In this document: positions 8,826-63,126 of the stretch, in pieces
How the letters are laid out: every line of letters starts with the position of its first letter
Numbering within the stretch: the stretch's first letter is position 1
From: Acanthaster planci
Taxonomy: Eukaryota
NCBI RefSeq assembly: GCF_001949145.1
Contig: NW_019091366.1
Span: 2,899,627 to 2,963,626 of the forward strand
Length of the DNA stretch: 64,000 bases
Reading direction: 5' to 3'
Notes under the pieces: generated by a model
The model's input: only the letters and a program-made list of their open reading frames with translations
The model's database searches: none
What the model was told of the DNA's origin: nothing
Translations under genes and position numbers: made by a program

Positions 8826-9063
8826 AAGTCTGGAGCCTATCAAAAGATAGCTGTATTGTGCATGTACGGCCAACCATGTGGTTAATATGGGTGAGCTGGC
8901 AGTAGCATGGTTGTGTGTATGCGTGTGTAGCCTGCAAGCATAGGGTCTGTGTGAACTGTACAATGTGCATGGTGCCCAGAGTATACATGTACACATGGTG
9001 AGAAGAGACTGTATGGAATCCAGTGACAGCTGCTTTTGATCCTGCCGCTTAGTAAGACCCGTG

Positions 9064-32724: not shown

Positions 32725-32776
32725 GATATCAAAGTAAACTGGGCTACTACACCAAGTGCAAAAAAAGATACCAGTG
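32725..32776 (+). CDS. TIA1: TIA1/TIAR-like exon (equivalent to human TIA1 exon 4). It encodes DIKVNWATTPSAKKDTS, the C-terminal end of RRM1, and ends in phase 1.
   Basis: A polypyrimidine tract and CAG acceptor end at 32,724. A GTAAGT donor sits at 32,777. The translation DIKVNWATTPSAKKDTS aligns to human TIA-1 EVKVNWATTPSSQKKDTS. The junction codon g|gt (Gly) joins the next exon in frame. Confidence 0.85.
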
Positions 32777-35700
32777 GTAAGTATGTGGTGCCTTGACTGG
32801 GGATTTGTCAAATAAGAGGCAATGTTTGGGCTAAATTCATATTTTTGCAAACACCTTAATGTGCTGGTTGCTCAGAATCAAAGTAAAAGAAAATAGTGAA
32901 ATAATCGTCACTTTGTAACAATTGGGGCTTACGGCTTAAACCTATATGTTACATGTTACGCAGAGTTGCACGATTAATGGTATATTTCTTGCTGCATTTC
33001 TTCTGGTTGTCAATTTTATTTGTTTTGGTCATGAGGCAGGATGTTTCTTTCATTTCTTTCCTTTAGTTTTTACTTGCTTCTGACTACACTTTTCTTCTTG
33101 CACATTACTGTACATGTACTTGAAGTTACATGTATTTGAAGTTATCTCCATATAAACTTACCCAACGAACCCACTTTCATACAAGCCTGCCTGTTGTACA
33201 GATGCATGTGTTTTAAATACCATAACAAGTTGCTGGTAGTTTGGTGTAGTGGAAACCATTATTTGTTTCAGAATGTAAACTCATACTGCAACTGGAGAGG
33301 GATGGGTACGATATTATTAGACTTAGTGTTACAGTGACATCTGTCGCTAAATTCAGCTTTGCGTCAGCATTCAGGAACTACATGTATATGCCTGCCAGTA
33401 TTTTTGATGAATATGAAAACTCAGCTGCTTGATTTCTTACTGCTGGTTGAGTCTTGTCTTAACATTGTTGTCACTGTTAGAAGAAGTAGTGAGTAATACA
33501 ATGAGACATGCTACCATGGACCACAATTCTGGGTCAAGTACTAAGACATTGTAAATGGTGTAGGTAGGTCCAACATGTACATGTAGGATGTGATGAAGTA
33601 CGTATTTTCCACACATTACTACTCAGTATCACACATGCTCACATTGCAAAGAACCACAAAGTACAAATCTCATTATTGCTTGACTGCATGAGTACATGTT
33701 CATCAGAATCAAAGTGACTGAAGCCTTTTTGAGCTGGACAGATGAAGTTACCCCCAAAGCCGCAAACAAACTGGAAAGTAGTCATTTTTAATATGTGCAT
33801 GTATATCTCTCTAGTCAGGCGAGTAAGATCATTCTCAGGATCCTTTTGGATCTTTTTCTCCGTCTTTCTATAACAATGCGTACTACTGTATGTATATCAA
33901 TGAGCTCCCAGAATCCATGGAGCACGACTTCCCTGATTCTAGGTCAGCTGAAGCTTATGTTTGCCATGCATGAAAGTTAGCCCCAGAATCTAGACATCTG
34001 TATCCACTGAATATGTGTGATCTGCTGGGTTTCTCTAGCAACATTGTCTTTTCGGCAGCAAACATTTCCTGTTCATAGGGTAGGCTGTATGTGTAATGTA
34101 GAAGATTCAAGGCTGTATTTTTTCAGGTGCTACATTTGCATGCAGACATGTTTTTGGTTTCTACAGTTAGATTTTATTTTGTAAGATGTCATAATTTCTG
34201 GGTACAAAACAAATTGTCTGTTATGGATTCTGAAAGTTAAAGGAAATGAGCACTCCCATCTCTCTTGTTGGTCTGCTACATGTACCTTCTGTAGTATAGA
34301 AAGCAGGTTGAATCTCCTGTAAAAGTGTACCTTCTATATAATACCACTATTTGAAATACAGAATTGTTGAAAACTGTCAAATTACCAATCAATTTGTTGC
34401 TTAGAAAGTAGCTATTCTTGTGCATATCTAAATTCACCTGAGCTGTAGAAAGTTCTTATTTGATTGCTTGAGTTTCATTTTAATTTTGAGGTAAGTTTTA
34501 AAATGTTTGAAGCAGCCCCTTGAGATTATTTCAAATGCTTGTTAAGGAGATTTAGGAAGTATTTTTTACCTTTGATGAGTGAGTCTAGTAGGAATTTTTA
34601 ATTCATGTAGTTTTTTCAGCGGCATGCTTTACACAAAGCCACATTTGTCCATCAGAGAATTATAAGAGGGAAAATGAAGTTGGAGATAAATTAAGTGTGA
34701 TGTACGCCTAAATGGCAATTTTTGTGGCAACTGTACAATTTGTCATTCAGCTGCAGTACATGTATGCAGGTCATTTTGCTTGATCCCCCGTTGGCAATAA
34801 AAACCTACGGAATTGGTTACCCATTCCTCCTCTGATTACTCTGGTACTGTAGAATTGTTGAGGCAGAGCCTTTGGAAGGCACTATCAGCGCTATATCTAC
34901 ATGTACATGTACGTGCATGTACCAGCACCTACCAGTGTGTGTGTAGATCTGATACTGTATGTTCATTGTACTGTCTGATCATTGGGTGAACTGTACCAGT
35001 ACACATGTACCAAGAATTCTTGGTGCTTGATGCACTGTACATGTATATTGCAATTACCAATTGCTTTAATGGTGACATATATCATTTCGTGTGCTCTATG
35101 CCAAACTTCAAGTCTTAGGGACATAAAATACTTCCATCCTTTCCATATCTTGAAGGATTTATAGCAGACATATAACCAGTAGACTAATGATAATCTGTAG
35201 TGTGTATAAGGACAAATAAAAGCATCATTAGAGCAATGATTGACAATCCAGACGTGGATGTGACCATGGTAGATGTTATTACGGATGGTCTTAATCGCTT
35301 CTTCACGGCTGACCCTTGGACTTGAGGCTTTGGTCTACCTGGAGACGAGGAAGGGTTAATTTCTGAGTGATATATAGGTAGTTTGGATTGTCTCCTTGAC
35401 TGTGATCATATGCTTCAGAATGACAGTATTATGATTCAGGAACGAGATTGCTTTGACATGAAGGAGTGAAGTGTTAACAAGCCGTCTGTCACTCCTCTTC
35501 CTCTGCTCCTTCTCAAGGTGACCCTTCTTCCACCCTTGCTCTTTGACAGGCTGTTGACTAATGTGCAAACGTTGAAATGCTTTGGACAAAGTAGGAAAAT
35601 CGGAGAGGAAGGGTTAAAACTATCCTTATAGTTCTTAAACAACATGCGTGTAGTGTTGCTACATGTAAATGGACCATGTTGAGAAAGAATAAACTTATTT

Positions 35701-38700
35701 CTCTAAGCAAAGTGACACTGACAGGCACTTGGAAGTATTTATCCTGGCTGTTCTGAGAACTCAACACAAGCTCAATGTCTAGACACACCACATTACACGT
35801 GTTGTCACTACAGACCAACGTCAATACCCACAAGCCAATGTGAATTTGACTCATGTTTTCAGAAGCACCCTTGCTCTATAACTGTCTTATCTTAGATTGA
35901 AGCATCTTCCACATGTGAATGTTATTATCAGCTCAACCACTCCTCAATCACGAAGGTTTTGATTTCTCCTGTATGATCAGATTTTGACGTTGCAATCTTG
36001 CATTTGCAGTAATTTTTGACCCAAAGGGTTTCATTTTGACCTTCTTCTCTTTTTTTCCCACCCCTCCTGGGTTTGATCATAAGCAGTTATTTGTCCATCT
36101 GAAATTATTCCAGAGGACTTCTAGTTTGGCACCTGGTGTATTAATCATGTCACAACATCAGTGTGAAGAGCTTGTCAACATCCGAGGGGCGTTGAGTTGA
36201 CCGACAGAGAGGACGGTTGGGGGTTGCATAGGGGAAGTAAAGTTCCTCTTATGAATTATGCCTAGACCAAAATGGTAAATGGTACTAGACCATGTAAACA
36301 TGATATGCCACTTGTACGTGGAAGGTATACCTCTTGAGATGTCAAGGAGCATGTATTTCTCCTGCAGATGATGATGAGCTTGGTGGACTGGGGGGATGGA
36401 GTTAGGTTAGGAGTTGAGAATTGGAATACATGTGGCTCTAGGATTCAGATGCATAGCTGTACATCACATGTACACTTCTATTCATTGAAACACCCATTTA
36501 TTTATTATAAATGGATTTACTTAATCATCAAAATGCTTCAGGTTTAGGAAATGTTATTATTTGTGTTGTTTCTGATGTCTCTAAGATTCTTCTTGAAAAT
36601 GTTTCGAAATTTAACTTCCTATTCATGTTTTAAAAATTCCTTTTATTTTTCTTATATTTTGCCAACAGTTCATCGTCAGATCATTTCAGGTAAAATTTCT
36701 TCACTTATTCATTAACCATTTAATAAAACAGATTGAGTCTAAAGCTTTACCCCAGGAAACTGATATACTGTATCTGAAATGTGCTGTTTGTCTGAATACA
36801 GTTTGGTGTGGCAATTCATGATTTTTCCCTGACCTGCCATGATTAGCTCCAGACACACTGCAAGATTAATCATCTAAAAAGGATTTGAGGGTCTCTAAAT
36901 GGAAAGACCCTCATGAAATGGTACCTGGAGAAAGGGTAACATTGGTCAGAAACCTTTGAAACACTATAATATCTCTTTGACAAGTACTGTGCCCACTAAA
37001 TCATATGGATGTGACTTGTGCCTCAATAGCAGGTTCAATAATTAGTGCTAACTCAGAAGTTATTTATTTATTATATAAATGAGCTTATAATCAGAAGCCT
37101 TCTGTTTAAACTGGAGGAGCCATTTTCCTTTTGAAAAATTTATTGGTGGACACTTCTGTGTTTTCTTTACATATACATGTACGTCATCATTAATTCCTGT
37201 TAATTGACTGGGGGAATCTAGCAGAAAACAGGTCGTTTCTGAAGAATTGCTTACTATTCTAAAAAGTATTTTGATGGAATCCTTGCATTTTGGAAAAAAC
37301 ATTGGCCTCTTCTCAAGGTGTTTTGAAAATGACTTGAGGCCAAGTAGACATTAAAGTACATATATTCCAGCTCAGTTGGCTTAGATAATACCTCACACAT
37401 TGACTGTACAGAGAGACTGCTGTCAAATTTCACAGTTCAACGTGGTAAAATATTGAGCATGGGGTCTGTCACAATGCAGACATTAGGAATAGGGGTTCAG
37501 GCAATTATAGAGATGCTAAAAATAGAACAAGGGCTCGCATGAGTTCCATTTCTGATGTCTAAGGGAGTTGTTGGGCAATGATATTAAAAAATGGCACATT
37601 TCTATTTTTTGTGAGTTAACTTTGAATAGGCTCATATATACAGGCAGGTATTTTATTTTTTTTCTAAAGTGGTGAATGATTTACATGAAGAAGTATATGT
37701 TTTTTTTATTGAAATTCGGTTTAGAGATATAATTGCATCACATAGTAAATGTTCAAATGATAAAGAGTATCCTGGGATGAGTGACATGCGATGAATGCTT
37801 GTAATGAGAAACCAATGTGCAATTAATGGCATTGATTGATTAATATTCCAGCAATTTCTAGTCAGAGAATTTCAAAGGATTATCTCTGTCAATGGTAAAT
37901 TGATGGAAGTAATGATTATAGTGTAACAGTTAATAGTAGCTCCTTCAAGGCTTATTCAAGCTTGTTATTTATAAGTTATCAACACTGCATGGTTTATTGA
38001 ATTGGGAAGTCACTGCTTTAGCATGAAGAGCTGACTCCCTGGTGAGTTTGTTGCATTATTGAACAATTCCAACCATCAGGTGGTGCTCCCTTGCCTCAAG
38101 ACACAACTGAGCAGGTGTTCACTTCGTGCTACTGAGAATGGTTACAAAGTCTGAATTTGACTCTCTGTGACAGGTCCTACTGACCTGCTCAACTACAACA
38201 ATTCCAGCATAGGATTGACAATGATATCACCAGAAAAGTGTCAGAGGTGTTAATTGATTGATGAAGCAGTTAACATTGATCTAAGCAGCAAGTGACTTCA
38301 TTGTTATACATGTACCTAGTAACCCCCTCATAACCTCAGATCAATTACTCTACCTGTGATATTAGATGAACAAACAATCACTTGTGGAAATTGGATTTGC
38401 ACTTTTCCTCTGAGCATAGAATAGTACTGTTTATGCATTCATGGAGAACAATCATGCTTATCATCTCCATTACTGCTTTTCTCTTTCCTGCTCTTTGAAG
38501 CATAGTATCTTCTTCACATATACACGACCAGGGTTACCTGTACCTGTAAAAATTATAAGACTTATCTTACCCCAAAAATTGCAGATATGTTCATCAGTTT
38601 TATAAAATTGTGAGATTTAAAAAAGAAGTTCATTTTAAATTGAGAAAGTCTCTTAATTAAATTTGACAGCCATCATTTCAAATGGTTTCATTTGTGACTC

Positions 38701-39479
38701 GTTTGTGGTCTTTCTAGATTGCAAAAAAATGTAAAAGAAATATTAAAAATGTTTACATGTAAAATGCAAAAGTTGTTTAATTTTTTATAACGTTAGAGCA
38801 GTTGTTAGTCATATTGGAATTCCACGTTATCATTACCAGAATAATGAGAATCATTTACATGTACATCCATCAAGACTGAACTTCATCTGGAGAGAGAGAG
38901 GAGGGGGGGAGGAAAGAAGCCATGAATTGTTATGCCAGGGATGAAACTACAGTTAGCTCCTTGATGTTGAGTATTGCATGCAATACTGGTTGGTTTTCAC
39001 ACCAAGGGGGCTAAAGCTGCAAAGGACTTGTGGGAATTGCTGGGGTATGCCAGTGGTGCTATTAAGATGCCATGCCACCTCCTTTAGACCTGCCTAGTCG
39101 ATGAGTTTTGCGGGTCATATCTTCTTGGAGTAACACCTTCGTCTTCCTGGCAAACCTCATCAAACCAGAAGGAGAGACTGACCCTACTGACTCTTTGTCT
39201 TAAAATATTCATGATTGGCACATTACCGCTTGATAATTGCATTGAATCCTGTCTCTAATAGTCACTGAGGCCATATTTGCATCCAAGGGGACTTTCAATC
39301 TTGTTCATTCTTTTATGGTGCTAAGGTAAATCTTTATGCCTTGATAGACAAACTGGAGTTAAGGCTGATGTTGTCATACAATTTCAACAATTGGCAGAGA
39401 TTTTCTGCAAAAATTATTATTGTTCTGGTAGGCTCATTGGCCAGGAATTTTATTTTTCAATGATACTAATTTATTTGTT

Positions 39480-39700
39480 TGCGGTACCTGCTGCTACATC
39501 TGATTCGAAACCAGCCAGCCGACACCAGCAAGCTTGGTGGTCGAGTGGTTCAGACTTCTGCACTAGTAAGCAGGAGGTTGTGGGTTTGAGTCCCACCCGA
39601 GTACACTTTTTCACAGGCCTGGGGGGGGCATACACTGAGCATACAGTGTTAAAACTACACGTTGGGATGTTAACCAGAGTGAGCTTATGCTGAGATTACA
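39480..39700 (+). mobile_element. tRNA-derived SINE insertion in a TIA1 intron.
   Basis: The tRNA-like head gcttGGTGGTCGAGTGGTTcagact...GGTTTGAGTCCCACCcgag carries Pol III A-box (TGGTCGAGTGG) and B-box (GGTTTGAGTCCC) motifs. A non-tRNA body follows. A second B-box-like GATTCGAAACC sits just upstream at about 39,500. Confidence 0.55.
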
Positions 39701-40252
39701 GCATGAATATATGTGTGTTGGTGTAAGGGAAAACATGTTATACAGCTTATGTGTTTGCTTTACTTGTTTTGAGGGTAAGACATTTCAATTTACATGTTTT
39801 GAATTTGGGGTAAGAGCGGTGCTTTCAAGGAAAAGAGCAAATGAAAATTACATGTATGTCTGAAGCTTATGAGCTGACTTTCCATTGACAATTGGAGCCA
39901 TGACCGGGAGAGATGTATTGATGGTTTCATGCTGTGAAGCTGACGTTTTAATCAGGTTGCTGATCCAATGGATGACATGTATTAACACACCAGGTCAGCA
40001 GGTTGTAAGAACTGTTCATTAATCCTCTGTCTTGTGTGTTAACACCTCTCCAGTCTTGACAGAACACCTCCAAATAATCATCAATTTATAGAATGGAGGA
40101 GTTACAGGGGTTAAGTTCAGCTTTCTAGGTGTCAGCTTATTAAAATTTGTTCTTGGTAATTACAAGATGTCATCTGTAACCTCATAGGAAATGTCATGGT
40201 TGTTAATTAAGAAACCCAACAAGGTACAAAAAAAGTTTCATAAAACACCATT

Positions 40253-40264
40253 CTCTCTCTCTCT
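40253..40264. repeat. (CT)6 microsatellite.
   Basis: The sequence reads ctctctctctct. Confidence 0.8.
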
Positions 40265-42723
40265 GTGCTACTGTACCTCACACCTATCCATCACTCCCAC
40301 ACCTACCCACTTAGCCCCGCCCCTGCCCCACCCTCTGCTTTCACTTCTAAGTATAATGTGGTGAACTCAGTATTTCTGCAAGAGGATTGGTCCTCTCTTG
40401 CTGGAATATTTAACATACGTCAGTTCCCTGCTATAATTCTCTCATTATATACGAGGCTTCCGGACTGACTTTGTACAGGGTTTCTTGATTAATTTGCAAT
40501 ATATTAGATCATTCTTGCTAGCAGCAAGTACATGTACATGTATGTCTTGCTCTGATAAACATACAGCTAGACAAAATGACATCCAAGAAGACAAATTTGG
40601 CACAATGTATGATGGAGAGAGAATTGCGTCCATTATTCAAGGAAGGAAAACACCTTGAAGTGTTGTATGAAATGTGAATAAACTGAATGCTTGTCTATTA
40701 ATATATCTGTTGAGGATGTACATGTGTATATTTCCTCTTGCATTATTGGTTCAACAAACATGTGATCTCCAAAAAAATAGATATGCCAATTTGCATTAAA
40801 ATGGTGTATGGCTGTAAATAGAACGGATACAACACACTTGTACGTGTACATACATTTTACATGCATGTACCTTAAACTCAGCATGCTACACATGGTCAAT
40901 AAGTGTAAAAGAAAAAATAGTTTCACAGTGGTCATTTTATGGTGCAGAATTAATTAACATTCGTTCTCTACAGAAATATTGAACTGGTGAACCAAACACA
41001 GTTTTTCGTTTTTTTTCAGTTGAATGTTGCAGAGATGCTTTTACTTGACTAAAGGGATAATTCCATAGAGACCGGTACCCTGGACATGGACATGTGTTGT
41101 ACAGACTAAAAAAGTACAATGACCACTTTCTTTTGGTCGTCCCTGTCCATCCTAAATTGCTTAATACAGTTTTCAAATCAGACAGGATGGTAGCCTGGAA
41201 TGACCTATGTGAAGATCTACTCATGCATAGATTTTGTGAAATTAAGATTTGCAATCCTGTTCAAAGCAAGAACTGTCAGACAATATTTGTTATATATTCT
41301 TGGTGCTATGCTCCAATTGAATGAATTGATGGCTTCCAGAACTCTGTCTCATCACATCAAGGTTCACAGCTGTAGCTGCTGAAACAATTCGCCATAGATA
41401 CGCATCGTCAAATGTTGGAAGGACGTCAGATTTGTAGGAGATTAGAGAGTCATGGTATATCCTGCATTAATCCAGTCAGAGAGATTCAGTACTTGCCACT
41501 GTGAATCAGAACCTCATCGATGTTTTCAGTTTGTTCAGAAATGGGGGGAAAAATCCAATTTGTGATGAGTGTTAGCTTTTTTATATTTCACTGGACTTGA
41601 ATTGTACAGTGTACTGTACATGCACAAATCCTAATCATACGTAGCGTTTGTTGCTTTGGTTATTTTTGGTGGATTAAACACAGACTTACAGGCATGATAC
41701 TGTTGGAAAGAAATATATAATGTAGTTCCAGTTTTGGCATCACCATAGATTTTATTTCTTGATCAGAATCAGATGAAAATGGAGTGATAAATATCAGGTT
41801 GTCTGGCTTAGTAAGGGAAACAGTTCAGCTGAGTCTAAGACTTTGCCCAGGGCTTGAGAAGGGTTCATCGATGGGTTGGTTGTCGGTAATATCAAGCATG
41901 CTTTGCCCCTGGGCAACTCATGCTCAGTCAAGCACTGGTCATATTATGAGACTAGCCAGCCAGGTATGACGTGGCAGTGAATGCTATATTGCCATGATAT
42001 CACATTGCATGAGATATTACCATTAGGAGATGTACATCATCATTATCATCATGTATCACCATGGTGATGTAGGGTGGAGATTGCATATCTTTGCTCCACC
42101 TTCTCGATTCTGTTCCATTTTCCTTCCGTTTCCTTCACTTCTCATGTACATCTGCTATTCCCAGTTGCTGTTCCCATTGACCTTTTAGGCGGCAGTTTTC
42201 CAGACTGCATTTTGCAGTTCTTTGCATTATGTATAAAAGTAGATTGGTAGCATTGAAAGGTCTCCCTTTTGCGAAGTGTTGAATCTTTTATCTGCAGGTC
42301 ACTGATTTTTTAAAAACAAGTTGTGGTAAATTGAAGTGTTGGGAAGAAATCAAGTGAAAAATTATTTGCTCAGTTCTGTCATATTTAAATGTTTTATCAG
42401 CTGAATAAACATGAAACAGTATTGGTTGTCTTACCTGTAGGTGTATTGATGTCCTAGATATCATGCATTCATTTCAAGAGAAATATTTATTGTTGTTTGG
42501 TGCCTAATTAATTAGTTACTAATTAATCACCTGAACTAAATGCCAGCTGAGAAAGTTCCAATGAAGCATACTTTCCAGACAGCAGCGGTACATGTAAACC
42601 AAACTTTGGGGTGTGGTTTGTCTGCCATTTTAAACTTTTTCCAGCTCCACTTAACTTTTTTCCAGTGTCCACTGTCACTTTCGCTTCACCTTTGACCTTT
42701 GTACTTTTTTGTCTTTACTACAG

Positions 42724-42811
42724 GTCATCATCATATATTTGTTGGTGATTTAGACCCTTCTGTAGAGACAGCTGATCTCTATAATGCCTTTTCCGTTTAT
42801 GGAACTATTTC
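42724..42811 (+). CDS. TIA1: TIA1/TIAR-like exon (human exon 6 equivalent). It encodes (G)HHHIFVGDLDPSVETADLYNAFSVYGTI(S), which is RRM2 beta1 with the RNP2 motif IFVGDL.
   Basis: The acceptor ...ctttactacag| ends at 42,723. A GTAAGT donor sits at 42,812. The product aligns to human [30 protein letters not shown]. The phase (1 in, 2 out) is consistent with the flanking exons. Confidence 0.9.
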
Positions 42812-44879: not shown

Positions 44880-45240
44880 TTGCTTCAGACACTTACTACA
44901 ATTGTTCTCATTTTGTCTTTATTGACCGTCCTCTTTCCCTAGCTTTTTAGACTGTTTTCCCCTCATCTCTTAGGTCTCTTAATCAGACTTTTTCTTCTTA
45001 CCCTGTCATCTCAGCAGTTTGTTTGACAGTCTGTGTTACTTTCTTTCACATCTTTTATCTGCACATTTCTTGCGGTCATCATCAGTCTCAGTTTGATTCC
45101 TCTCTGTCTTCCTTCTTTGCGTTGTATTCTCACCCTCTCTCTCTTGCCTCAAATCATCCACGTAGTATCACTTTCCTGTCCCTGTTATTCTAACCCACTC
45201 ACTTTACAAGCACCGCTCGTAGATGTCCTCATCAAAACCT
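44880..45240 (+). repeat. Pyrimidine-rich (CT-rich) low-complexity tract of about 360 bp.
   Basis: The + strand is nearly purine-free over long runs (tctctt, ctttcc, ctctgtcttccttctttgc, ccctctctctcttgcc). The ORF-track entry 45033..45242 is a by-product of this bias. Confidence 0.5.
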
Positions 45241-47465: not shown

Positions 47466-47722
47466 ATGTACATGTACACGTAGAAGGTTTACATGTACAC
47501 GTAGAAGGTTTACATGTACATGTAGAAGGTTTACATGTAGAAGGTTTACATGTACATGTAGAAGGTTTACATGTACACGTAGAAGGTTTACATGTACACG
47601 TAGAGGGTTTACATGTACATGTAGAGGGTTTACATGTACATGTAGAAGGTTTACATGTAGAAGGTTTACATGTACACGTAGAAGGTTTACATGTACATGT
47701 AGAAGGTTTACATGTACATGTT
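47466..47722. repeat. Minisatellite of about 13 copies of the 21-bp unit TACATGTACA(C/T)GTAGAAGGTT, with two truncated 15-bp copies.
   Basis: The tandem periodicity is visible directly. The ORF-track entry 47462..47767 (EGLHVHV repeats) is simply its translation. Confidence 0.95.
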
Positions 47723-50700: not shown

Positions 50701-53585
50701 AGCCCCTTTCTACACTTGGAATAATTTCCATACTTTGTGCCATCGAATCATTCAAGGTGGCCTTCAAGTAGCTAACACACTAATGATTGCTAGTGATTAT
50801 TAATCAAAACGGGAGAGACAAGTCACTGGTTATCTTCACACATTTGTAAATTAGAAGGAAATCCTAGTAATATTTACAGAGTGGATAATTATAATATTCC
50901 AGCCATTGTCTTTACCTTGAGATTTGTAATTATGGCATTGTAGATTTCTCCTGTTATCCTACAATACTTGGCCGTAAAAAAGTTCAAATGATAAAAAAAT
51001 TCTTTCATTAATTAGAAATTTATATATAGAAACATTACTTTGAAGATTTAGTCCAACCTTACATGGCAACCTGAGATTGCATCCCAGATTACTCAGCTTG
51101 AGTTACTGAGCGCCAAGGAGTGATAGTTCATGGATATTCAGACTTGCTTCTGGGATGTGGAGATGGAGGCTGGTCTGTCTCAAGTGTCTGTTACGTTTCC
51201 TTTTGGAATCCTGCTGAACTGACAATGACACACTTAAAAAAGGACACTTACCAAGGCCATTAATAACTGCCCATTATTTCATGGATAATGTAAGAGGTTG
51301 CTCTGTCCGCTGCGATACTACCTGGGGAAGAGGAGGAATCTGGAATTTGGAAAGGAATGATAAACCTGTGCTCCAATGAAAATCACAGGGTTGTAATGAA
51401 TGAAAATCACAAGGTTGTGACAATGCCATGTCCTGGAATTTGAAAAGGATTCAGTCTTAAAATTTCAAAGTTATATTATTAGTAAAATGCTGTTACATAA
51501 AAGAAGTCTTTGGAGGTGGGTGAAGCTCTGGTATTAGGGGGAAGGAATTTTAAGGCCAGAGATACCAAGATCTATGCATTTTATGCAATATGGATAGCAT
51601 TACGTGCTATTGAATACATGGTGTTCAATAAATCATGTGTTGTTTCCTGGCATAAAGAATGATCATGCACGTTGCAGTCCCTCTTAAATTGACCACTTTT
51701 GATTCAGGTTTCTCTCGTTATCTTGTATAAGATGCATAGATAACCATCAGAATCAGACTGGCGAATGGAGCATACAGGGCACTAGGTGAAACTGGATATC
51801 TCTGAAGTGTACCATCTTTATGATTCCAACCCCTGGCTATGCTGATGGAAACCAGGGAATTATTATCACAATGTCATCTGATGGGATTAGATTTGTCATT
51901 AGGTCAGTGTGTCCCTGAGGGAGTCCAAGCTGACTAGGGAAAATTCCAAGTGATCTTAAGGCTGGTATCTTGGGGCAGGATGAGGCGATAGAAGGGAAGG
52001 GTAAAGGAGTTGGTTCTCCTACCTTACCTGCAGGGTAAATTGGAGCCTGATTTTCAAGTGCCCCAGCCTCGTCTGCATTTAACACCAATTTCCTTATCCT
52101 TTGATGAGCCTGACTGATTAGGTCTATGGATGAGATGGTGTGATGCCATGAAATCAAAGGAGGAAAAAGCCAAACCAACCTTCAGGGCCTATGTACATGT
52201 ACATACAAAGATATATTGCTTCAGTAGAAATGAGAGTTGCAGACCTCAGGATTTGTAAGCACAGAATATCATGTCTTAATTACCTTTTCTGATAAAATTT
52301 GTAGGTTACTTTTGTGTTTTTAAAGCATTTTCAAGGGGCAAAACCTGCGTCTAGTCATAGACGCATGTAGAGTTATTAGCCTAGATCTTGATCAGTTATT
52401 GTTGGGAGGGGAAGACTTCAACTAAAAGTCCCAGGGTTTTTGTCTGAGAATTGAGTATCTTTGCAGCAAACATGATTAGCCAAGATAATAATTTAGTTTG
52501 TACTGTAGACTTCTGCAGCCAAACTTCTTTTTATAGGTACACTGTACGTACATAAATACAGTGTGGAATACTGTAAGTCTAAACATGCAGTGTTTGCATC
52601 ATTTAAAGCCATTCATAAAGCAGTACTCTGTAGTTATTGCCCTAACAAGGTTTGTTTTAGTGTTTCCAATTCAAAATCTTTTACTGAAGCTTACAACCAG
52701 CCAACAGACAAACAAGCAGTCAGCAATTTTCAGTTTTCAAGAATGATCATCATACACAATCTCTATAATAAAATGCAATAGCATGGCATCAGTATTCTTG
52801 GCCTCTTCTGAAAAAGAAATGTAAAGAATCCAGATCTTTCTGCAGTAAAAGACGTTGACATTCATTGGAATTAAGTGTATCAGTTCGAAATCTTGTTTGC
52901 AAAGTAGAAACGGTGTGGACACTTTCCTTGCTGCTTCATACTCCAAGTAGGTTTTATCAAGGTACTTGTCAAGATGATGGATGTGGTCCGTATTTACACA
53001 GAATGATAAACCGGCTGGTTTGGCAGGCTGAGAAAATGTCAGTAGAATGCATACAGTGCTTCCTATAGGGACACATCTCTAATAAGAGTGAACGATTTCC
53101 CATACGGCATATCACTGGGAATAATTTCCTCCTATGCTGTGGATCAAGTGAGCTGCTATTAGTTGAATTGGTGGAGATATCAAACGGAAGAATGTATTGA
53201 TGTTTGCAAGATGGGATTTAAAATGATACTGGTAATTCAAATGAACTGAATAAAAAACACTCCAAGGTATACATAGGTGTTTGCTACCCAGGAATAGCAA
53301 AAATCAAAGTAGATGAAAAGTTGAAAATTACAAACAACTTCAGTAATTAAAATCAAGTACATTTCCTCCATTGCTCTCTTCTTTCAAGTTTCACTATTTT
53401 CCTGCTTTTGATTTAGATTTCAATTTAGATTTTGTTAATTCATTTTTTTCCTGTTATGCTTTTGTTCCTTGGGGTTCATTTTGAAAATTCTAATGTGGTA
53501 ATTATTTTCACATAATTCATGAAGGGATGCAAAGTTGTTTAGATTTTAGAGGGGATTTAAGATGAAATGTGAGTTAAACAATGAG

Positions 53586-54115
53586 GGGTGGGGCCTGGGT
53601 GGTGCCGATTAGGGTTTGATAGCTCTACATGTTGGTGGGACCTGAGCTCATTGGTGTTGAGTGTAAGTATGGTAGAATGAGCCCTTAGTAGATTAGGGTG
53701 GGGCCTGGGTGGTGTCGATAAGGGTTTGATAGTTCTACACGTTGGTGGGACCTGAGTTAATTGGTGTTGAGCTCAAGTGTTGTAGAATGAGCCCAAAGTG
53801 GTTTAGGGTGGGGCTGGAGTGGTTTAGGGTGGATCCAGAATGATTTAGGGCAGAGCTGAAGTGGAAAGAGTGGAGCTGGAATGGATTGGCATTGGGGCCA
53901 AAGGGCACAAAGGTGGGGCCTAGGGACATAAGGGGGCCCTGAAGGCTTAAATTCAAGTGCATTATGGGGAGGTCTTGGATCTGAGAAGAGTAGGGTGAGG
54001 CATTCGTGGAGTAGGCTGGGTTCTTGGTGTGATGGGATGGAGTTTAAGTGCAGAAGGGTGGGGCTTACTGTGCAGTGGTCAAGCTTGAGTGAGGTTAGGT
54101 CTGAGTGGGGAGAAG
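53586..54115. repeat. G-rich tandem repeat. It has two copies of a 110-bp unit (GGGTGGGGCCTGGGTGGTG...GAATGAGCCC...) followed by a degenerate array of about 20-25 bp built on GGGTGGGGC and GTGG.
   Basis: The two units span 53,586-53,695 and 53,696-53,805 and are about 90% identical. Shorter degenerate repeats (gtttagggtggggctggagtgg and similar) follow to about 54,115. The run is GT-rich on the + strand. Confidence 0.8.
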
Positions 54116-54703
54116 ATTTTTATTTTTATTTGTTTCTTCAACTGCATTATTGTGCACAACTTCACAAATTTTCAAATGTTCTCATATTCAGTTTTACTAG
54201 AATTCAATCTCTGATTTGCACAACTTAAATAAATATAGTCTGGTTTTAGTTCTTTTTAAATTTAAGACCTTTGTGGAATTCCCACACTACACTTTTACAG
54301 CCCAAACAATCCTCAATCCATCACCTGTTGGAGAATTTAGGATTGTTGGTGATTTTAGGAATTACATCTGAAACAAAACATGTCAACCGTGTGACTTCAA
54401 TTTTGCATCACCCTTTTCTTCGGAAGAGATTTATCTGTTTCAGCAAAAATGTGCTCATGTGCTCCAAGAGAAGATCATTAATTTTTGCTCTTATGTGTGC
54501 GACATGTGTCCCCTGATTGATTGCTGTAGGATACAATAGGATTATTATTTTGTTACAAATTACTTAGTTTTACAGGAAAGACAGATTTCCTTTAGCCGTG
54601 TTCCACTGTTTTTTTCAGAAATGGGAGGAATATTTTTATATCGAATTTTCTTGTTTCCATCACTCTGATGATTAGTTTTTGCTTGTTATTAATTTCTTTA
54701 CAG

Positions 54704-54782
54704 AGACACACGCGTTGTGAGAGATCCCACAAAAGAAAACCGATCAAAGGGATATGGGTTTGTCTCCTTTGAAAAGGAAGAA
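54704..54782 (+). CDS. TIA1: TIA1/TIAR-like exon (human exon 7 equivalent). It encodes (S)[26 protein letters not shown], which is RRM2 with the RNP1 motif KGYGFVSF.
   Basis: The acceptor tttctttacag| ends at 54,703. A GTAAGT donor sits at 54,783. The product aligns to human [26 protein letters not shown]. The exon ends in phase 0. Confidence 0.9.
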
Positions 54783-55751
54783 GTAAGTTTATAATGATTG
54801 GGATTATATGTGAAAATGAGAAGAACTGATACATTGCCTTTGCTTATTCAACGGAACTCAGATTAGTTCCATTGTGCATGTATGGTTATTTCTGATCAGC
54901 TCAGTTAGAATCTTTCCTTTAGCGTCTTTTGTCAACTTGTATGTGATTTTTGAATATTGATTCCTCCTCTTTGTTGTGCAATTTCCTAACATGGTCTGTT
55001 TTAGTATTCCATATGACTGATTGTTTCATTGATTTATACATGTACATAGGTGAATCTGAGTTAAGATTTAGAATTTCACTCCTGCATACATATATTTCAT
55101 TCCATTTTACATTGAAACGTGTTGCTACTTAATACATGTACTTTATTTAAAGCCTACTTATTTGTAACAGTGTTTTCCATTGATCTTGCATGCATTATGA
55201 GATGGCAATTTTGTTCTTTTTTCTAGAAAACTTTGCAGCAGGTGCTTCCTTTTTTCACTCATACTCTTATAATCCAGAGTCTTGAGCTATGTATCAATAA
55301 GTATTTTCAGAGATTTGACAGTACTATACTCCACCTGTTTCTGTATTCCTTACCTAACAGGCGACTTGTATCAATATTTTATGAGCAGTTAATATTAAAG
55401 CCTTCCTCTGCTAGATGTCTTTTTCCCCTCCTGTTTTAATTGACTGGGTATGAAGACATGACAAGCAGGTCCTAGTTAATATTCAGGTGTAACTTACCAG
55501 ACCATGAATTAAAAATGCATGTTAGGAATATTAGCACATCCGTATGGACTTGACGAAAAAGACCGACATTCAGAAGGGCCAATATTTGAATGCTGTAGGT
55601 GTTGCGGTTCGTGACACATACAGTAGATTTGGTGGAATAGAAATGCTTTCTAGTTTGAAATTTTGTTGACAATTTTAACTTCTTGTGCAAACCTTGATGT
55701 TAATTTGTGAATTAATCAGATGTTGGATACCTTTGCCTTTTCTTTCACCAG

Positions 55752-55854
55752 GAAGCCAAAAATGCCATCAAAGCAATGAATGGTAAATTTCTTGGTGGCA
55801 AAATCATCCGTACAAACTGGGCAGTACGTAAACCTTCAGAGCAGAAAATAGAGA
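55752..55854 (+). CDS. TIA1: TIA1/TIAR-like exon (human exon 8 equivalent). It encodes EAKNAIKAMNGKFLGGKIIRTNWAVRKPSEQKIE.
   Basis: The acceptor tctttcaccag| ends at 55,751. A GTAAGT donor sits at 55,855. The product aligns to human [35 protein letters not shown]. Confidence 0.9.
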
Positions 55855-56210
55855 GTAAGTTTCATAGTTTGTTTAAATTTTTAGACAAATGATTCTGTTG
55901 TTATTGTGCTGATAGCAAAGTTTGGAAGAGTTAAACATTAGATTCAGCCTTGTGCAAGTGAATAGATTAAAAATACTGTGACATAATTCAAGTATAGGAT
56001 GATTGCTGAAATAATACCAAGCTTCTTTTTATGTAAAAAAGAAAAATTTTGAGATTGGAGATTATTTCACTTCCAAATATTCCATCCAATATGTACATGT
56101 ATGTTACATTGGCCAGATAAATGCATGCATTCAGACTTACAGTTAAAATGATTTGAATAAGGAGTTAGTTAGGCAGTTGAAAATTAATCAGTCAGTTTCT
56201 GTTTTCACAG

Positions 56211-56294
56211 CAAAGTCACATGAGGAGGTGTATAATCAGGCAAGTGTCAACAATTGTACAGTATACTGCGGTGGTATTCAAAATGGGATGTCAG
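56211..56294 (+). CDS. TIA1: TIA1/TIAR-like exon (human exon 9 equivalent). It encodes (T)[27 protein letters not shown], the inter-RRM linker plus RRM3 RNP2 (VYCGGI).
   Basis: The acceptor ctgttttcacag| ends at 56,210. A GTATGT donor sits at 56,295. The product aligns to human [32 protein letters not shown]. Confidence 0.9.
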
Positions 56295-57826
56295 GTATGT
56301 TGTTATAACATTATTTTTATAGGAATTACATGTATATGTAAGTAATGTACTAAAATGTACAAACAGGAAAAATTGTGCACCTGTAGAAACATTACATTAC
56401 ATGTGTGTACCTACCATGTGAGTTCAACCCTTCCACTTAGTTTGTGTGCATGTGCTAAAATTCGGTAAAGTCGTGGTCACTTTCTGTTGCTTTTGAAAAT
56501 GGTGACGCCAGCCAGCAAATGACTATACCAAAATCCATCTGCAGAGATCTTCCGCATTGTGTAATGTTTGCCGAATTTATTCCAGAGAAATATAATCAGG
56601 CTTCAGATTTCATTTTGTGACGTGTTTCTTGTTAATCATAAGTGACATTTCGGAGAAAATAGGGTTAAAGATGTCTGCTCATGTATTTCTGAACATAAAA
56701 AAGGGTATTATTAAATTGAAATTTTGTTGTCCGGTTTTTCCGCACATGCTGCAAATCTTGGTAATTGAAAGAGTGTTTTAAAAAGGATCCCATGTTATGT
56801 TTAAGCTATTGCGAATTGTCCTTAGTTTTATCAGTTTCAACTCTGGCTCTGTGTTTAATGATGGTCGACCATGATTTATGTGTACACACGTACATGTACT
56901 CCATCAACGCACGTATTCATGCACTACTTTGGACAAATGATTCTCGTGCAAAATATTAAATTTGCAATAACGTGAAAACACTATCGATTTTTTATCGGGC
57001 CTTACTACACACCACACTTTTTTTGTTTGTTTGGATAAACTGGAGAAGTGGTTATAAAATGGGACAGACCATGGATGTATTTTCTTTCAAATCTGATCAT
57101 TTTTAATCACTTTTTCAGTATTTGTTTCACATTTTTTGCAACTGGGTTCATAGAATACGGTGACATAAGTTGTCTAATAAATTTTTAGTTAAAATCAGGT
57201 TATCTCTATGAACATTAGTTGTTTGTCAGTATTTTGTTAAAAATAAATTATGGTCTCTATCTGCGGAAAGAAGTTTCGGAACGGTGTCCCATGTCGCCTG
57301 CTCAAAATCCACAGTAAAGTGATCGAGTGTGCATGTGCTAACTCCCAGTTAAGTGGTGCACAAAGGTGTGGGAGTGAATTTACGTGCCACATAAACATCG
57401 TTGTTTACTTGATGTGCAGTTGATTTCATTTGATCTGGTGACATAAATTACAATGTGTTTAGTATGCTCTTAAATATTCACTGCTTTTAGTCATGGAAAT
57501 GTAGAAGTATTGCACCTAAGACCAGCCAGGAATTTTTTAGGACAGTAATTTTAAGATTGTTTACTAGAAGACACTGACTCTTTGTATGATCAGACCTGCT
57601 GGCTTTTAGAGGTGGAAATCTTTTCTAGTTTCCATCTGCAATTTCATTTCTGAGACCCTGATCAAAGTAATCCAATAAAACTGCACTCGGAAACCAAGAA
57701 TAGCTTGCGGACTTGATCTGCATTGTTAATTCAAAACCCATTAATTTCACTGGATTTTCCCCCGTTTTCTGAGCTGACACAGTGAACTTATGAACTCTTA
57801 CCTTGTCTGGTTTGCATTTTAAACAG

Positions 57827-57911
57827 AAGAATTACTACGCCAAAGGTTTCAGGAGTTTGGTACCATACAGGAGATTAGGCAATTTCCAGAAAAAGGTTAT
57901 GCATTCATTCG
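57827..57911 (+). CDS. TIA1: TIA1/TIAR-like exon (human exon 10 equivalent). It encodes (E)[27 protein letters not shown](R), which is RRM3 with the RNP1 motif KGYAFIRF.
   Basis: The acceptor gcattttaaacag| ends at 57,826. A GTAAGC donor sits at 57,912. The product aligns to human [29 protein letters not shown]. Confidence 0.9.
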
Positions 57912-58390
57912 GTAAGCAGACCTACTATAAGAATGTTATAGAAGTAAGCCTTGACTGGATATAGTAAGCTAATAATATTGACTAGCTGTAATCTTCATGG
58001 TGAAGGGTGCTGTAAGAAGTTGGCATTCACTCTCATTTACTGGGATTGATTATCAGCCTGAAGTATTAAGTGCATGGCAGCAGTTGATAGATTTTAATGA
58101 TCAGACTGTGAAATGAACCACAAGCTTAATAACTGCAAAGTTCATGTGCTAGTGCAGGTCACCTGAAATCAAGTCGTAGTTGTGAATTTATAAAGAAACA
58201 TGAAACGTTGTCACTTCAAGCATTTTTGGTAATGAAAGTTATTGCATTGAAAAACATTTTAGTGCTTCTTTTTCTTCGGTTTTTTTTATAATGTTTTGGC
58301 AAATGCTGTGAAGTTTATTCCTCAATGTTACATTTTTATTTAGAGTTCCTGATTACAACTTGAGATAAATTTCCTAATTTTTTGTTTCAG

Positions 58391-58514
58391 ATTTGCATCT
58401 CATGATGAAGCCACTGCAGCCATTGTTGGTGTGCATAGTCAGCTTGTTGGCAACTACAAAGTCAAATGTTCGTGGGGGAAAGAAACGCCATCAGAGCCAT
58501 CAGCTCATGTTCAG
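58391..58514 (+). CDS. TIA1: TIA1/TIAR-like exon (human exon 11 equivalent). It encodes (R)FASHDEATAAIVGVHSQLVGNYKVKCSWGKETPSEPSAHVQ, the end of RRM3.
   Basis: The acceptor ttttgtttcag| ends at 58,390. A GTATGA donor sits at 58,515. The product aligns to human [41 protein letters not shown]. Confidence 0.9.
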
Positions 58515-61500
58515 GTATGACATGGGCAAGGGGACAAAACTTGTACTATGAAAAGAATGGTTTGTGCATGTGAGTTAAGACTGATAATAAGTACATGTTT
58601 ATAATATGTGAGCACGGTGTGTTTGAATGTGGATCAAAACTGTGTTCTATCTGGCGGTACATGTATGTATATATCAACTTGTAGACTTGTGACTTTTCTT
58701 CTGTGTATAAGGTTTCTTTTTTAAAATTTCTGGTTAAATGCAATTGAAACTTCAGATACAAAATACAAGCCTTTAGAAGTTGATTTTTCCAGCCTTTGGC
58801 TGGCTAGTCAGTAGCATACATGTATTTGGTACTGTTACATTTACGTCTGTTTTGAAATCCCAGCATAACATCTGATGGTTTTAAGAACAAATAGTTATCA
58901 TTGCTTTCCACTTGGAGGTTTGCTTGAGTGACATCTGAAGAATTGAGAATTGAGTTGTTTATGTCCAGTATGGTCTTACATCCACTTGAATTCATTGCCC
59001 ATCAACTCTTGGTGGTTGATCGTCGTAAGCCATCCCCTAGTCTGCTCCCTTCAACAACCCCCCACCCCCGTCAACGGTGCTACACACGTGAAGCGTCAGG
59101 TTATTCCGTTGGCACATTGTAGGCTTGGCAAGGCAATTTGATTGGAAGGTGTGAAAGACTGTTGCGAGCTGTACAGTTCCCCCTAGGGTCAGTGCTTCAG
59201 TGAAGCATCTATACCTCGGCAATTTCTAGAGCCATGGATATGGTCTACAATATAGTACAAGCAGCAGAGTAATGTTAGTTTGGCAGACTGGCCATTAGCT
59301 AATACGTGAGCCACAGATTCCATTTTTACATTCTTGTTATCTTCATGTCTTAAGCAGTTTTATGAGACCTATTAGTTTTCTGAGCGTTCACTTTCAATGC
59401 CAACTGAAATATTTTGGTCATCCAGTTCACTATTTCCTTAGAGCAATTGCAGAGCAACTTCTTTCCTGCAGTGTACATCTGGATCCTTTGTGCTCATCAG
59501 TTTTTAGAACACCCTCATCGATGAATACTACACAGAAAATAGAAAATCATCCTGGAATCAGTTTCAAATACCCTTATGGCCCTTGGCCTTTTTTCTCTTG
59601 CCAAATATAAAGGTCTTTAACCACTTTGTGTGGGGGTTCCTGGTACCGGGTATCTTGGGTTTGTACGCATAGCCGGGTGCGCGAAGTTGGACAAAAGAGC
59701 TGGGCCTTGTAACAAAAACCATACTCGGAACAAAAGGCTGAACTGCTGGGAATTGCCATCATTTTGCAGCTGGCATTAGCGGAGGTAATCTGTCATTGTT
59801 TTAAATCAGTATACCACTGTTTGCGGTGATGTAATACCGCTGCACGCTAAGCTGGCTGCATTTAAAAGACACCACTGGCATTCAGCAAGGCGCTGGGCAA
59901 TTTCGGGAACAAAGGAAATTATGCAACACTACACTATCTGGGCCCTCTTTAATGGGCGGCATGCCCAGTTACAATACTCAGGCATCAATGGAAGTTGCCT
60001 GTCAGATTAGAGTAGCCACCAGACAGTCATTTTTGTGGGTGTGAGCGTCCAGTAAATGAAGTTCTGGATATTTGAAGAATTTTGAAAATGGAAAATCTTG
60101 AAAATTGCCCGGGAACTCATCCCGCATATGCAAATTCCACCCAGCAGCAAGTGGTTAAAGCTCTCTTTCAGCACAACACCTATTTGTCCATTCATTTGTT
60201 GACAATATGCATGCTCAGCCAGGCTGACCCAGCCAGCCATTGGTTGATAACGAAGGCTACTTGCCGTGGTATCTGAGCCAGGAATATCACGCCTGGACAG
60301 ATCACTTTTTCTCTCACCCGTGTGGAGTCAACCAAGAAATTTGTGATTGACATGAGTAAACGGAGGAAAGAGAGGAAGTAATCATGAAAAGTGCAGTGTT
60401 CTGACGTGAAGTACCAGAAGAAATGACAAGATTCAAAGGATGTGCTTGGACACACATAATTTAGTTTGTTTGTCACAATGTTTTTTCCTGCTTGAGTCCT
60501 CTGCATTCATTAATAAACAATTTAACTTCTCATACTGTTATATTTGCATGACTTTCTCAATAAGATTCTCTTGTTGGTGCACTTAAACCGCTTTTAATTT
60601 GAAACCTTAAACTTTAAATTCTTACTATTTATAATCCCAGTGTCATTGTGTTCAATTTGCATTTCAAACCTAATTTTGATATTTGTACTTTTCTTTTTGG
60701 ACTTCACATTTATTTTGTCAAGCTACTTGTCATTTATTTGACATTCATATATTTTATTCCATTAATTTCAGTTTGTATTTCTTGACTTTACATTTTGAAT
60801 TTAGCATTGGTTCAATTAATTTTATCACCACTATATAGTGGAACCAAAATTAAGCTCATTTTTGTAAAAACTCATTTAAATTCAAGACCTGTTTACTTCA
60901 CATAATTAAAACAAAGGATTTTAAACACTTCAATTTTAATTGCCACGGTAGTATGATTTTTTTCAAATTGTTTTCACGTTTGCTCTGTATAGAATGAATT
61001 TTATTCATGCTCACACCTGCTTAATAGTGTAATCTGAACAACCTTTCCCCTTCTTTTAAATCACATATGAAATTTTTTTACCATTTATTTGAAGGAATTG
61101 GGTCAAATGACTTTTATCTTCTATATCCTATTTTACTCTTTGATTCCATATCTTTTTGACTACTTACATCGCCCATTCCTGAATGAGATATCCTTTTACC
61201 TGTTTTCATAAGCCCCTCTTGATGGTGTTAGGGCCCCCTTCAAGCTCTGTCATTGGCCATTACGTGTTCTGACAGCTGACGACCCTAGTAGGGTGTTAGA
61301 GCAAATACAAGAGACGTGTTTCTGTGCCCCACCAAGCAACGCGTGCACCTGCGTCACATAACACATGTGTGGAGACTTGGTGTCTTCAGCATATGATGAA
61401 GAGGATTGTCTTGGGATTTTCCCACAGATAATACTGTTAATCTATCCAGAGTTGTTGTCTTCAACTCCTCCTTTTATGTCCTGGCTAATTTGTTGAATAT

Positions 61501-62286
61501 CATTCTTTAGGTAGATTTTATTTGAAGAGTGGCTTTGAATTATTTATTTGTTTCATTTAAAGTGTTTGTTTTATTCAGCGTGGACAAACAATCCCGACCA
61601 CTTACCCTTTATGGTGAAGACGTCTTGTATTCTGCAGATTTGATTTTTTAACATTTTATATTTATTTTCTACAATAGAAATTATACTAGAAATAGATATA
61701 ATTTAAACTCTGTTTCCTTGGAATATGAATTGCCGGAGTGTTTTCCATAACATTTCTGAATGAAAGATATTTATTAACTTGTTTTGATGAAATTTCTGAT
61801 ATCAAGGAAATAGCTTGTCTTTTTTTGTTCAAAACAAGATTAATCACCGAAATTAGAAGGAAGCTAATCTATAAAGGATGTGAAAGCTGTCAAGTGTAGT
61901 GACATGGCAGTGGTACATGATTGGTTGCAGTTTCATTGTATTTCCCATCAGAACTTTCATTGTGAATTTCCTGTGGATAAATTTTAATCTGCCCTGAAGT
62001 CACATTCAGTGAATGCAGCTTTAACCAGTCATCTGGCCTGTTTACCAGCATTATAAGCATCTCTTTTTGCCAGTTGTAGGATGTTTAAATTACATTTATT
62101 TGCAGAAAGTCCAACTGTAGGAATTGCGATAGTTACAGTTGGTGATGTTAAAATCTGTTGGATTTCTCCCAGCAGTAGTTATTTCTTAAGTAAAATCATA
62201 CTTCCATGTCATTTCCATTCATTGTTTTCTCAAAGTGAACTAACTGTCATTAAATTGTTGGTTCTCATTGATTTCATTTGACACAG

Positions 62287-62468
62287 CAGCAACAGCAGTA
62301 TGCATATCAAGGCTTTGCTACCTACCCGCAGCAAGCTGTACAGCAAACACAGCAACCTAGCCAACCATACGTTCACTATTTCAACCAGCAGTTTCCTGCT
62401 GGACAACAACAGCAATATCTGCAGATGACGCCCTCAACACAGGCCACATACTACTATAACTATCCACA
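62287..62468 (+). CDS. TIA1: TIA1/TIAR-like exon (human exon 12 equivalent). It encodes QQQQYAYQGFATYPQQAVQQTQQPSQPYVHYFNQQFPAGQQQQYLQMTPSTQATYYYNYP(Q), a Q/Y-rich prion-related domain.
   Basis: This is a tandem NAGNAG acceptor (acaCAGCAGcaa). The first AG ends at 62,286 and the alternative AG at 62,289 would give a start at 62,290. A GTAAGT donor sits at 62,469. The composition matches the TIA-1 prion-related domain, which is Q/Y/G-rich. Phase is 0 in and 2 out, consistent with the next exon. Confidence 0.85.
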
Positions 62469-62930
62469 GTAAGTGCCAAAACTGTTGGAATTTCTGAGAA
62501 TTGTTGGGAAACTCAGAACTGAAAACTTTGTTATTTACAAATCTTAAGCTCCTTAGAATTCACAGTGTCATGTGCCATTAAATTTTTCCAAACCTTTTTG
62601 AGACTTTGAGAATTTTTATCATGCACTATGGGCACTTGAGGATACTTGACAAGATCACACACACCTGGGCATGAAAATAACAAATGATTTGTTAATCTGT
62701 GTTAGAGTGGTTGATTTGACATCATGGAATTTGGGAAATGATCTTTGCTTAGTAAGATTCGTTGTAAAAGTTTTCTTCTTGGACAAATCTTACACATACT
62801 CTAAAATTAAGTAAAAAGAATTGACAAGCTGCAGTGAGGGTTTGTGTTTTTGATAGTATAACCCTGCGTGTGGCTGTAGGGCTTGTCTTTGGCTGTGACT
62901 GACTTGACTCATTTCTTGTTCTTGCTACAG

Positions 62931-63126
62931 AGCGTCAGGTATGGTTATGCAAGGGCAGTATGTACAGAGCCAGTACCCCCAAGGACAAACTGTTCAACAG
63001 ACTCAGTATGCTCAACAGACCCAACCCATTTCAGCTCTTGGACAAGGCATGGCTCCAAGCAGAGGGCTCATGACGCCTAACTCATCCCAAGGAAATTATA
63101 TGCATACTGGCTTCCCAACTCAATAA
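62931..63126 (+). CDS. TIA1: TIA1/TIAR-like terminal coding exon (human exon 13 equivalent). It encodes (Q)ASGMVMQGQYVQSQYPQGQTVQQTQYAQQTQPISALGQGMAPSRGLMTPNSSQGNYMHTGFPTQ followed by a stop.
   Basis: The acceptor ttcttgctacag| ends at 62,930. The frame is maintained from the previous exon (ca|a gives Gln). A TAA stop sits at 63,124-63,126. The Q-rich content matches the TIA-1 C-terminus. Confidence 0.85.

Follow-up and report, generated by a model that had tools for sequence, protein, structure and literature searches.

Where is the first RNA recognition motif of a TIA1/TIAR protein whose second and third motifs and glutamine-rich tail are encoded in a stretch of DNA that has more than 32 kb of sequence upstream of the first recognizable exon? 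The question is raised by 64,000 nucleotides of Acanthaster planci DNA (the window; contig NW_019091366.1, positions 2,899,627 to 2,963,626 of the forward strand). An initial annotation, made by eye from the letters, had proposed nine exons of a TIA1/TIAR orthologue at 32725-63126 and had found no RRM1 exons ahead of them. We conclude that the window very probably lies inside a single A. planci TIA1/TIAR-type gene, starting in a long intron, with the RRM1 exons upstream of position 1.

The window has a G+C content of about 37% and a longest open reading frame of 113 amino acids, and looks like intron-rich eukaryotic DNA. A first tblastn probe with a human TIA-1 sequence gave colinear placements on the + strand at the positions initially proposed, and no conclusion was drawn from it. 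The translation of the nine exons (330 amino acids) matches the A. planci protein "nucleolysin TIA-1-like isoform X2" along the full length of the query with 98% identity (E=2.9e-214); isoform differences account for the remaining 2%. The next matches are proteins of other starfish (86-91%), followed by TIA1/TIAR/Rox8 proteins of arthropods, molluscs, hemichordates and vertebrates (45-59%). All named top matches are nucleolysin TIA-1, TIAR or Rox8 proteins of echinoderms, arthropods, molluscs and vertebrates, and not members of other RRM families. The 90% cluster contains six A. planci RefSeq isoforms (XP_022080638 to XP_022080643), all on one 3.11-Mb contig. We placed RefSeq isoforms on the window with a purpose-written exact spliced aligner, which accepts only perfect codon matches and only GT/GC-AG introns. 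Residues 103-439 of XP_022080638 (isoform X1) fell into ten exons with zero mismatches, confirming the proposed exons, and isoforms X5 and X6 were placed inside the window over their full length with AG/GT borders. Therefore, the window is part of the already annotated A. planci TIA1/TIAR gene (RefSeq "nucleolysin TIA-1/TIAR-like", six isoforms), and its discovery as such is ordinary. The orthology initially proposed is borne out by the family-wide matches across Metazoa and by the top solved structure, human TIA-1 RRM2-RRM3. The matches of the similarity searches suggest one TIA1/TIAR gene in this starfish. The CpG observed/expected ratio is uniformly low across 1-64000 (mean 0.31, no island) and is the same in 1-32724 as in the remaining gene body; such uniform depletion would fit the whole window as one continuous methylated gene body.

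The nine exons, all on the + strand, have AG acceptors after pyrimidine tracts and GT donors on all but the last, and they join into one 993-nt frame ending in TAA. The exon 4 equivalent (32725-32776; 52 nt, DIKVNWATTPSAKKDTS) is entered in phase 0 and left in phase 1, and encodes the last RRM1 strand and a linker. RRM2 starts in the exon 6 equivalent at 42724-42811 (88 nt) with RNP2 (IFVGDL), continues in exon 7 at 54704-54782 (79 nt) with RNP1 (KGYGFVSF), and ends with IRTNWA in exon 8 at 55752-55854 (103 nt), which also carries linker sequence. RRM3 is likewise spread over three exons: exon 9 at 56211-56294 (84 nt) with its start (NCTVYCGG), exon 10 at 57827-57911 (85 nt) with RNP1 (KGYAFIRF), and exon 11 at 58391-58514 (124 nt) with its end (CSWGKET). 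The Q-rich domain is encoded by exon 12 at 62287-62468 (182 nt), which has a tandem acceptor described below, and the coding part of exon 13 occupies 62931-63126, with the stop codon TAA at 63124-63126 and the 3' untranslated region beyond. With AG/GT borders and an in-frame join, this arrangement is far beyond chance, so that the place of the nine exons stands as first proposed; the motifs by which they had been recognized (VNWATTP, FVGDL, KGYGFVSF, IRTNWA, NCTVYCGG, KGYAFIRF, CSWGKET and the Q-rich tail) are all in the joined 330-residue frame. A spliced transcript agrees with the map. This is a JGI metatranscriptome contig of another starfish (L003), whose protein is 91% identical. Its nine aligned blocks end within 3 nt of the exon borders (blastn, word size 7), and it also aligns past the stop codon at 63127-63181 and 63280-63313, in the 3' untranslated region. 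The exons are joined in it as proposed, with RRM1 ahead of exon 4. In nucleotides 1-40 of this contig, stop codons stand in the coding frame just 5' of YVGNL, and because of these stops its 5' end probably derives from intron 1, retained in the transcript, or from an alternative 5' exon, in place of the normal exon 1.

RRM1, which corresponds to residues 1-102 of the annotated protein (MESYPEY to NGRKLFDK), is not encoded in the window on either strand. This part of the protein includes MESYPEY..QRT, LYVGNL..MMNE, an insert LRRNEGEGE, and QGGNDPYCFVEF..LFDK. Exact 6-residue words of residues 1-103 are absent from all six frames of the window. Of the 5-residue words, just two are present, NLSRI (- strand) and GGNDP (at 17746), about the number expected by chance on our own estimate; GGNDP, considered as part of an RRM1 exon, was discarded as a chance match since a stop codon follows directly and splice sites are lacking. 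No match to the RRM1 residues was found in the window by tblastn at E<=100. A profile built from 103 RRM1 segments of homologues and run over the six frames with filters off matched best at the RRM2 and RRM3 exons and at the terminal piece of RRM1 that exon 4 encodes, and a weak match at 20304-20474 (score 6.4, E ~3) was set aside as noise. Finally, nucleotides 1-255 of the starfish transcript L003 encode YVGNLSRRVTEELLYGIFSELG...NDPYCFVEF...NGRKVFEK directly before EIKVNW, and these RRM1-coding nucleotides have no match in the window (blastn, word size 7). The earlier failure to see RRM1 exons upstream was thus correct by exact words, tblastn, profile and cross-species blastn alike.

To judge from this cross-species transcript, RRM1 is what precedes exon 4 in the mature mRNA. 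Since RRM1 lies ahead of exon 4 there and is absent from the window, exons 1-3 must be located upstream of position 1, and exon 4 must be preceded by an intron of more than 32,724 nt. Positions 1-32724 (+) are then the 3' part of this long intron, which runs from RRM1 exon 3, outside the window, to exon 4, and in which the alternative exon 9064-9216 is found. The initial annotation had offered an intron 3 of more than 32 kb and a gene extending past the 5' edge as separate explanations; both are correct and describe the same situation, with RRM1 absent from the window yet annotated, and placed before exon 4 in L003. RRM1 seems to be missing because of the place at which the window begins, and a domain absent from the window is not a domain absent from the gene. 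Orthologous genes span about 104.9 kb in Diadema setosum and about 103 kb in Ptychodera flava; therefore, a long TIA1/TIAR gene is normal in ambulacrarians, and a 64-kb window can begin within one intron of such a gene. The two teleost genes used below span 6.3 and 7.8 kb.

The upstream 32 kb, although devoid of RRM1 exons, are not free of coding exons, as they contain an annotated exon that had been overlooked. This alternative 5' coding exon at 9064-9216 (+) begins with ATG, encodes 51 amino acids (MLTHSYVQQIPMLGPPLLNTQRVPMEPTGVVMIPYPCPQAVPVIMQPPLQP; MLTHSYVQQ...MQPPLQP) rich in proline, and ends in phase 0 at the donor CCG/gtaaga (a slash before or after exon sequence marks a splice border). 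It joins exon 4 and takes the place of RRM1 in RefSeq isoforms X5 and X6, and is a 100% tblastn match to the N-termini of two annotated proteins (P0122 and P0125). Its existence permits a different view of the locus, in which mainly an RRM1-less protein is made from an internal promoter, starting at 9064, and the RefSeq join to RRM1 is an artefact that merges two genes. X5 and X6 indeed lie wholly in the window, the ATG has an in-frame stop 5' of it (9037-9039), and a CCAAT-like motif, agccaatcag, is located about 240 nt 5' of the exon. However, RRM1 is continuous with exon 4 in the transcript of the other starfish, and the retrieved orthologues of Patiria, Asterias, Diadema, Strongylocentrotus and Ptychodera all have RRM1 before the exon-4 motif. 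Exon 4 itself opens with the last RRM1 strand (DIKVNWA), which is meaningless without the remainder of the domain. Moreover, a CpG island that would mark an internal promoter is absent near 8-10 kb in the observed/expected profile, and the 51-residue peptide had no word-sharing candidate among 5.8 billion proteins and no homologue by HMMER among 1.84 billion representatives, within whose clusters isoforms of other species may sit hidden. The single HMMER match to the peptide (P0126) is a translated tandem (satellite) repeat with a short P/C-rich motif and was rejected as a homologue. We regard two merged genes as very improbable, and retain a single gene with its RRM1 exons upstream.

Within such a gene, the exon at 9064-9216 could be used in more than one way. 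As the first exon of an internal promoter, it would give an RRM1-less TIA protein. A candidate acceptor, tcctgccgcttag/TAAGACC, is present at 9052/9053, and its use would turn the exon into a cassette of 164 nt whose first codon in the exon-3 frame is TAA, a poison-exon reading; inclusion of this cassette would give a transcript with a premature stop or an RRM1-less protein.

Still less probable than two merged genes is an assembly error or gap that put the RRM1 exons on another scaffold or in inverted orientation. Draft assemblies can contain errors of this kind, and the DNA 5' of the window was not seen, but the RefSeq model of the full protein is on a single contig (3.11 Mb), the minus strand of the window contains no RRM1 fragment, and genes of about 100 kb are normal for the ambulacrarian orthologues. 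Least of all do we credit the remaining suggestion of the initial annotation, that RRM1 exons are present within 1-32724 and too short or too diverged to be recognized: those of the teleosts are short (26-29, 97 and 99 nt) and could be overlooked by eye, but the exact protein is known and all other exons match it at 100%, so that its RRM1 exons would too, and all four RRM1 searches of the window (6-residue words, tblastn, the 103-sequence profile and blastn with the transcript) were negative.

What weighs against our placement of the window inside a single gene can be named briefly. The place of exons 1-3 and the true length of the intron are inferred from the RefSeq protein models and not seen; the sole transcript evidence is the cross-species contig and not an A. 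planci transcript; and in the comparison that follows, the human gene structure is represented by teleost genes and by the 13-exon layout given in a review (PMC8836218).

We compared the exon structure with that of vertebrates by mapping Paramormyrops TIA1 (L001/P0043, 12 coding exons) and Betta TIAR (L002/P0065, 13 coding exons) by means of the exact aligner described above, and by marking intron positions on a MAFFT alignment of the starfish and teleost proteins, the teleosts standing in for the human gene. The starfish phases (0,1,2,0,1,1,2,0,2) are those of both teleost genes. In the RRM region, the phases are identical at all seven junctions (0; 1,2,0,1,1,2), and 6 of the 7 fall in the same alignment column. 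These are the junction before exon 4 (between K and D/EVKVNW, phase 0), those after DTS (phase 1), in the Ser codon after GTI/GRT (phase 2) and before EAKNAI/DAENAI (phase 0), and those after GMS/GLT (phase 1) and in the Arg codon of FIR/FVR (phase 2). At the seventh, a phase-1 junction in the linker that connects RRM2 and RRM3, starfish and teleosts differ by 2 columns, within a gapped stretch. They agree in the length of exon 6 (88 nt) and of exon 10 (85 nt), and exon 4, with 52 nt in the starfish and 55 nt in the teleosts, has the same phases and the same column. The two junctions of the Q-rich tail share their phases (0, 2), and their low-complexity surroundings prevent placement in columns. 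Against the teleosts, the initial claim that every junction and phase equals that of the human gene is thus upheld for the phases and for six of the seven RRM-region columns. The broader claim, conservation of exon structure between an invertebrate and vertebrates, holds against teleost TIA1 and TIAR. That echinoderms and vertebrates share intron positions is what one expects of deuterostome housekeeping genes.

Human TIA1 has 13 exons, of which 1-4 encode RRM1, 5-8 RRM2, 9-11 RRM3 and 12-13 the Q-rich domain, exon 5 being alternative and 11 amino acids long (PMC8836218). The exon set first listed for the starfish (4 and 6-13) lacked an equivalent of exon 5, which the exact spliced alignment of a RefSeq isoform located at 36669-36689 (+), between exons 4 and 6. 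This alternative micro-exon of 21 nt (ccaacag/TTCATCGTCAGATCATTTCAG/gtaaaa, phase 1/1) encodes VHRQIIS and occupies the junction at which human TIA1 carries its alternative exon 5. Isoforms X1, X2, X4 and X5 contain it, X3 and X6 lack it, and its counterpart in Patiria miniata is VQRQIIS. The donor, CAG/gtaaaa, has no G at +5 and is followed by tttcttcacttatt, a U-rich stretch. This U-richness was dismissed as a special feature, the T fraction of 0.50 at +7 to +36 being the same at constitutive exon 8. Exon 12 has a tandem acceptor of the NAGNAG type (cag/CAG, 62284-62292), with a start at 62287 or 62290, and therefore X1 and X2 differ by one glutamine (QQQQQ versus QQQQ). Isoform X4 is without the 9-residue RRM1-loop insert LRRNEGEGE (residues 62-70 of the full annotated protein P0121), which is encoded outside the window; its site, at the position of intron 2, is also that of an insert in vertebrate TIAR isoforms. 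The practical value of these placements is one of quality control, in that the micro-exon and 9064-9216, both annotated but small and easily overlooked by eye, have been located.

Inserts at the same two sites are found more widely. At the micro-exon site (DTS^ junction), inserts of 7-8 amino acids are also present in isoforms of Octopus and Gigantopelta, and RRM1-loop inserts at the vertebrate TIAR insert site are found in starfish, bivalves, hagfish, shark and axolotl. Thus, a TIA1-type micro-exon at the exon 4/6 junction and a TIAR-type RRM1-loop insert coexist in one starfish gene. This coexistence, together with mollusc inserts of similar size at the same sites, suggests that both alternative-exon sites may be older than the duplication that gave vertebrates TIA1 and TIAL1. 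The possible antiquity of alternative micro-exons in TIA genes is a modest evolutionary lead. The combined proposition, that both alternative exons are this old and that 9064-9216 is a regulated switch and not noise of the annotation, seems to us doubtful, if less so than any of the rival explanations weighed above.

The introns contain several other features. The intron that follows the micro-exon and ends at exon 6 has a tRNA-like sequence at 39531-39604 (+; Rfam tRNA, 33.5 bits; anticodon undetermined by ARAGORN). This sequence probably represents either a tRNA pseudogene or the head of a short interspersed element derived from a tRNA. The 11.9-kb intron before exon 7 contains, at 47469-47721, a tandem array of about 12.6 copies of a partly self-complementary 21-nt unit (TACATGTACATGTAGAAGGTT), of which a spurious "HVHVEGL" open reading frame is a product, and, at 53586-53823, about 0.9 kb 5' of exon 7, 2.2 copies of a 110-nt unit (86% match). 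Self-BLAST of the window revealed no interspersed repeat common to different introns. A scan for sigma-70 promoters and terminators is irrelevant to a eukaryotic locus and was not used.

Pfam recognizes two RRM_1 domains in the part encoded by the window, which comprises RRM2 and RRM3 and, of RRM1, no more than the last strand; in the full-length protein as annotated (P0121), it recognizes three stretches of RRM_1. The last 126 residues, encoded by 62287-63123, are 29% Q and 11% Y, a composition as expected for a prion-like domain. The closest solved structures to the full protein are human TIA-1 RRM2-RRM3 (2mjn, E=2.4e-58), TIA-1 RRM1 (5o2v) and a TIA-1 RRM1/U1-C fusion (6eld); the top structures are TIA-1 and TIAR domains, with Nam8 and Pub1 among the matches. 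The order RRM1-RRM2-RRM3, the Q-rich C-terminus, the closest relatives and the vertebrate-type exon layout are all those of the TIA1/TIAR family.

The biochemical function of the protein and the real expression of the annotated isoforms we infer. RRM2 is the main binder of U-rich RNA and RRM3 binds RNA without specificity, while RRM1 has no detectable RNA affinity in vitro and, with the C-terminus, recruits the U1 small nuclear ribonucleoprotein (U1 snRNP) via U1-C to weak 5' splice sites (PMC2964331). By analogy with vertebrates (PMC2964331, PMC8836218), starfish RRM2 would bind U-rich RNA, with RRM3 adding affinity, RRM1 and the Q-rich tail would contact U1 snRNP through U1-C and promote the use of weak 5' splice sites, and the tail would drive stress-granule assembly. 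Within the window, isoform diversity could arise in three ways: by inclusion or skipping of the micro-exon, by NAGNAG choice at exon 12, and by use of the alternative 5' coding exon. If X5 and X6 are made, their RRM1-less product might, speculatively, be expected to bind U-rich RNA yet recruit U1 snRNP less well, and if the switch at 9064-9216 is real, it could let the gene adjust how actively its own product recruits U1-C.

Among known relatives, the TIAR-like proteins of Patiria miniata (X2, P0004) and Asterias amurensis (X3, P0003) are 86-87% identical to the part encoded by the window, and P. miniata shares both small inserts with A. planci, as VQRQIIS and LKRVQGGGEQS. Human TIA1 has the same domain order, a Q-rich C-terminus and a small alternative exon between exons 4 and 6, and the teleost structures imply the same allocation of domains to exons. 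It differs in that its small exon has 33 nt against 21 nt (VHRQIIS) in the starfish, with no obvious sequence similarity between the two, whereas the starfish protein has a longer tail that is richer in Q (29%), and the starfish gene an intron of more than 32.7 kb before exon 4 and an alternative 5' exon that gives an RRM1-less isoform. The intron phases are identical to those of vertebrate TIAL1/TIAR, as represented by the Betta gene, and just as isoforms of shark and axolotl TIAR carry an RRM1 insert, starfish isoforms differ by LRRNEGEGE at that site. Vertebrates have the paralogues TIA1 and TIAL1, whereas the similarity matches point to one gene in the starfish. Drosophila Rox8 and yeast Pub1 and Nam8 have been named as TIA orthologues or analogues (PMC8836218); they share the three-RRM architecture with the starfish protein but are much more distant from it.

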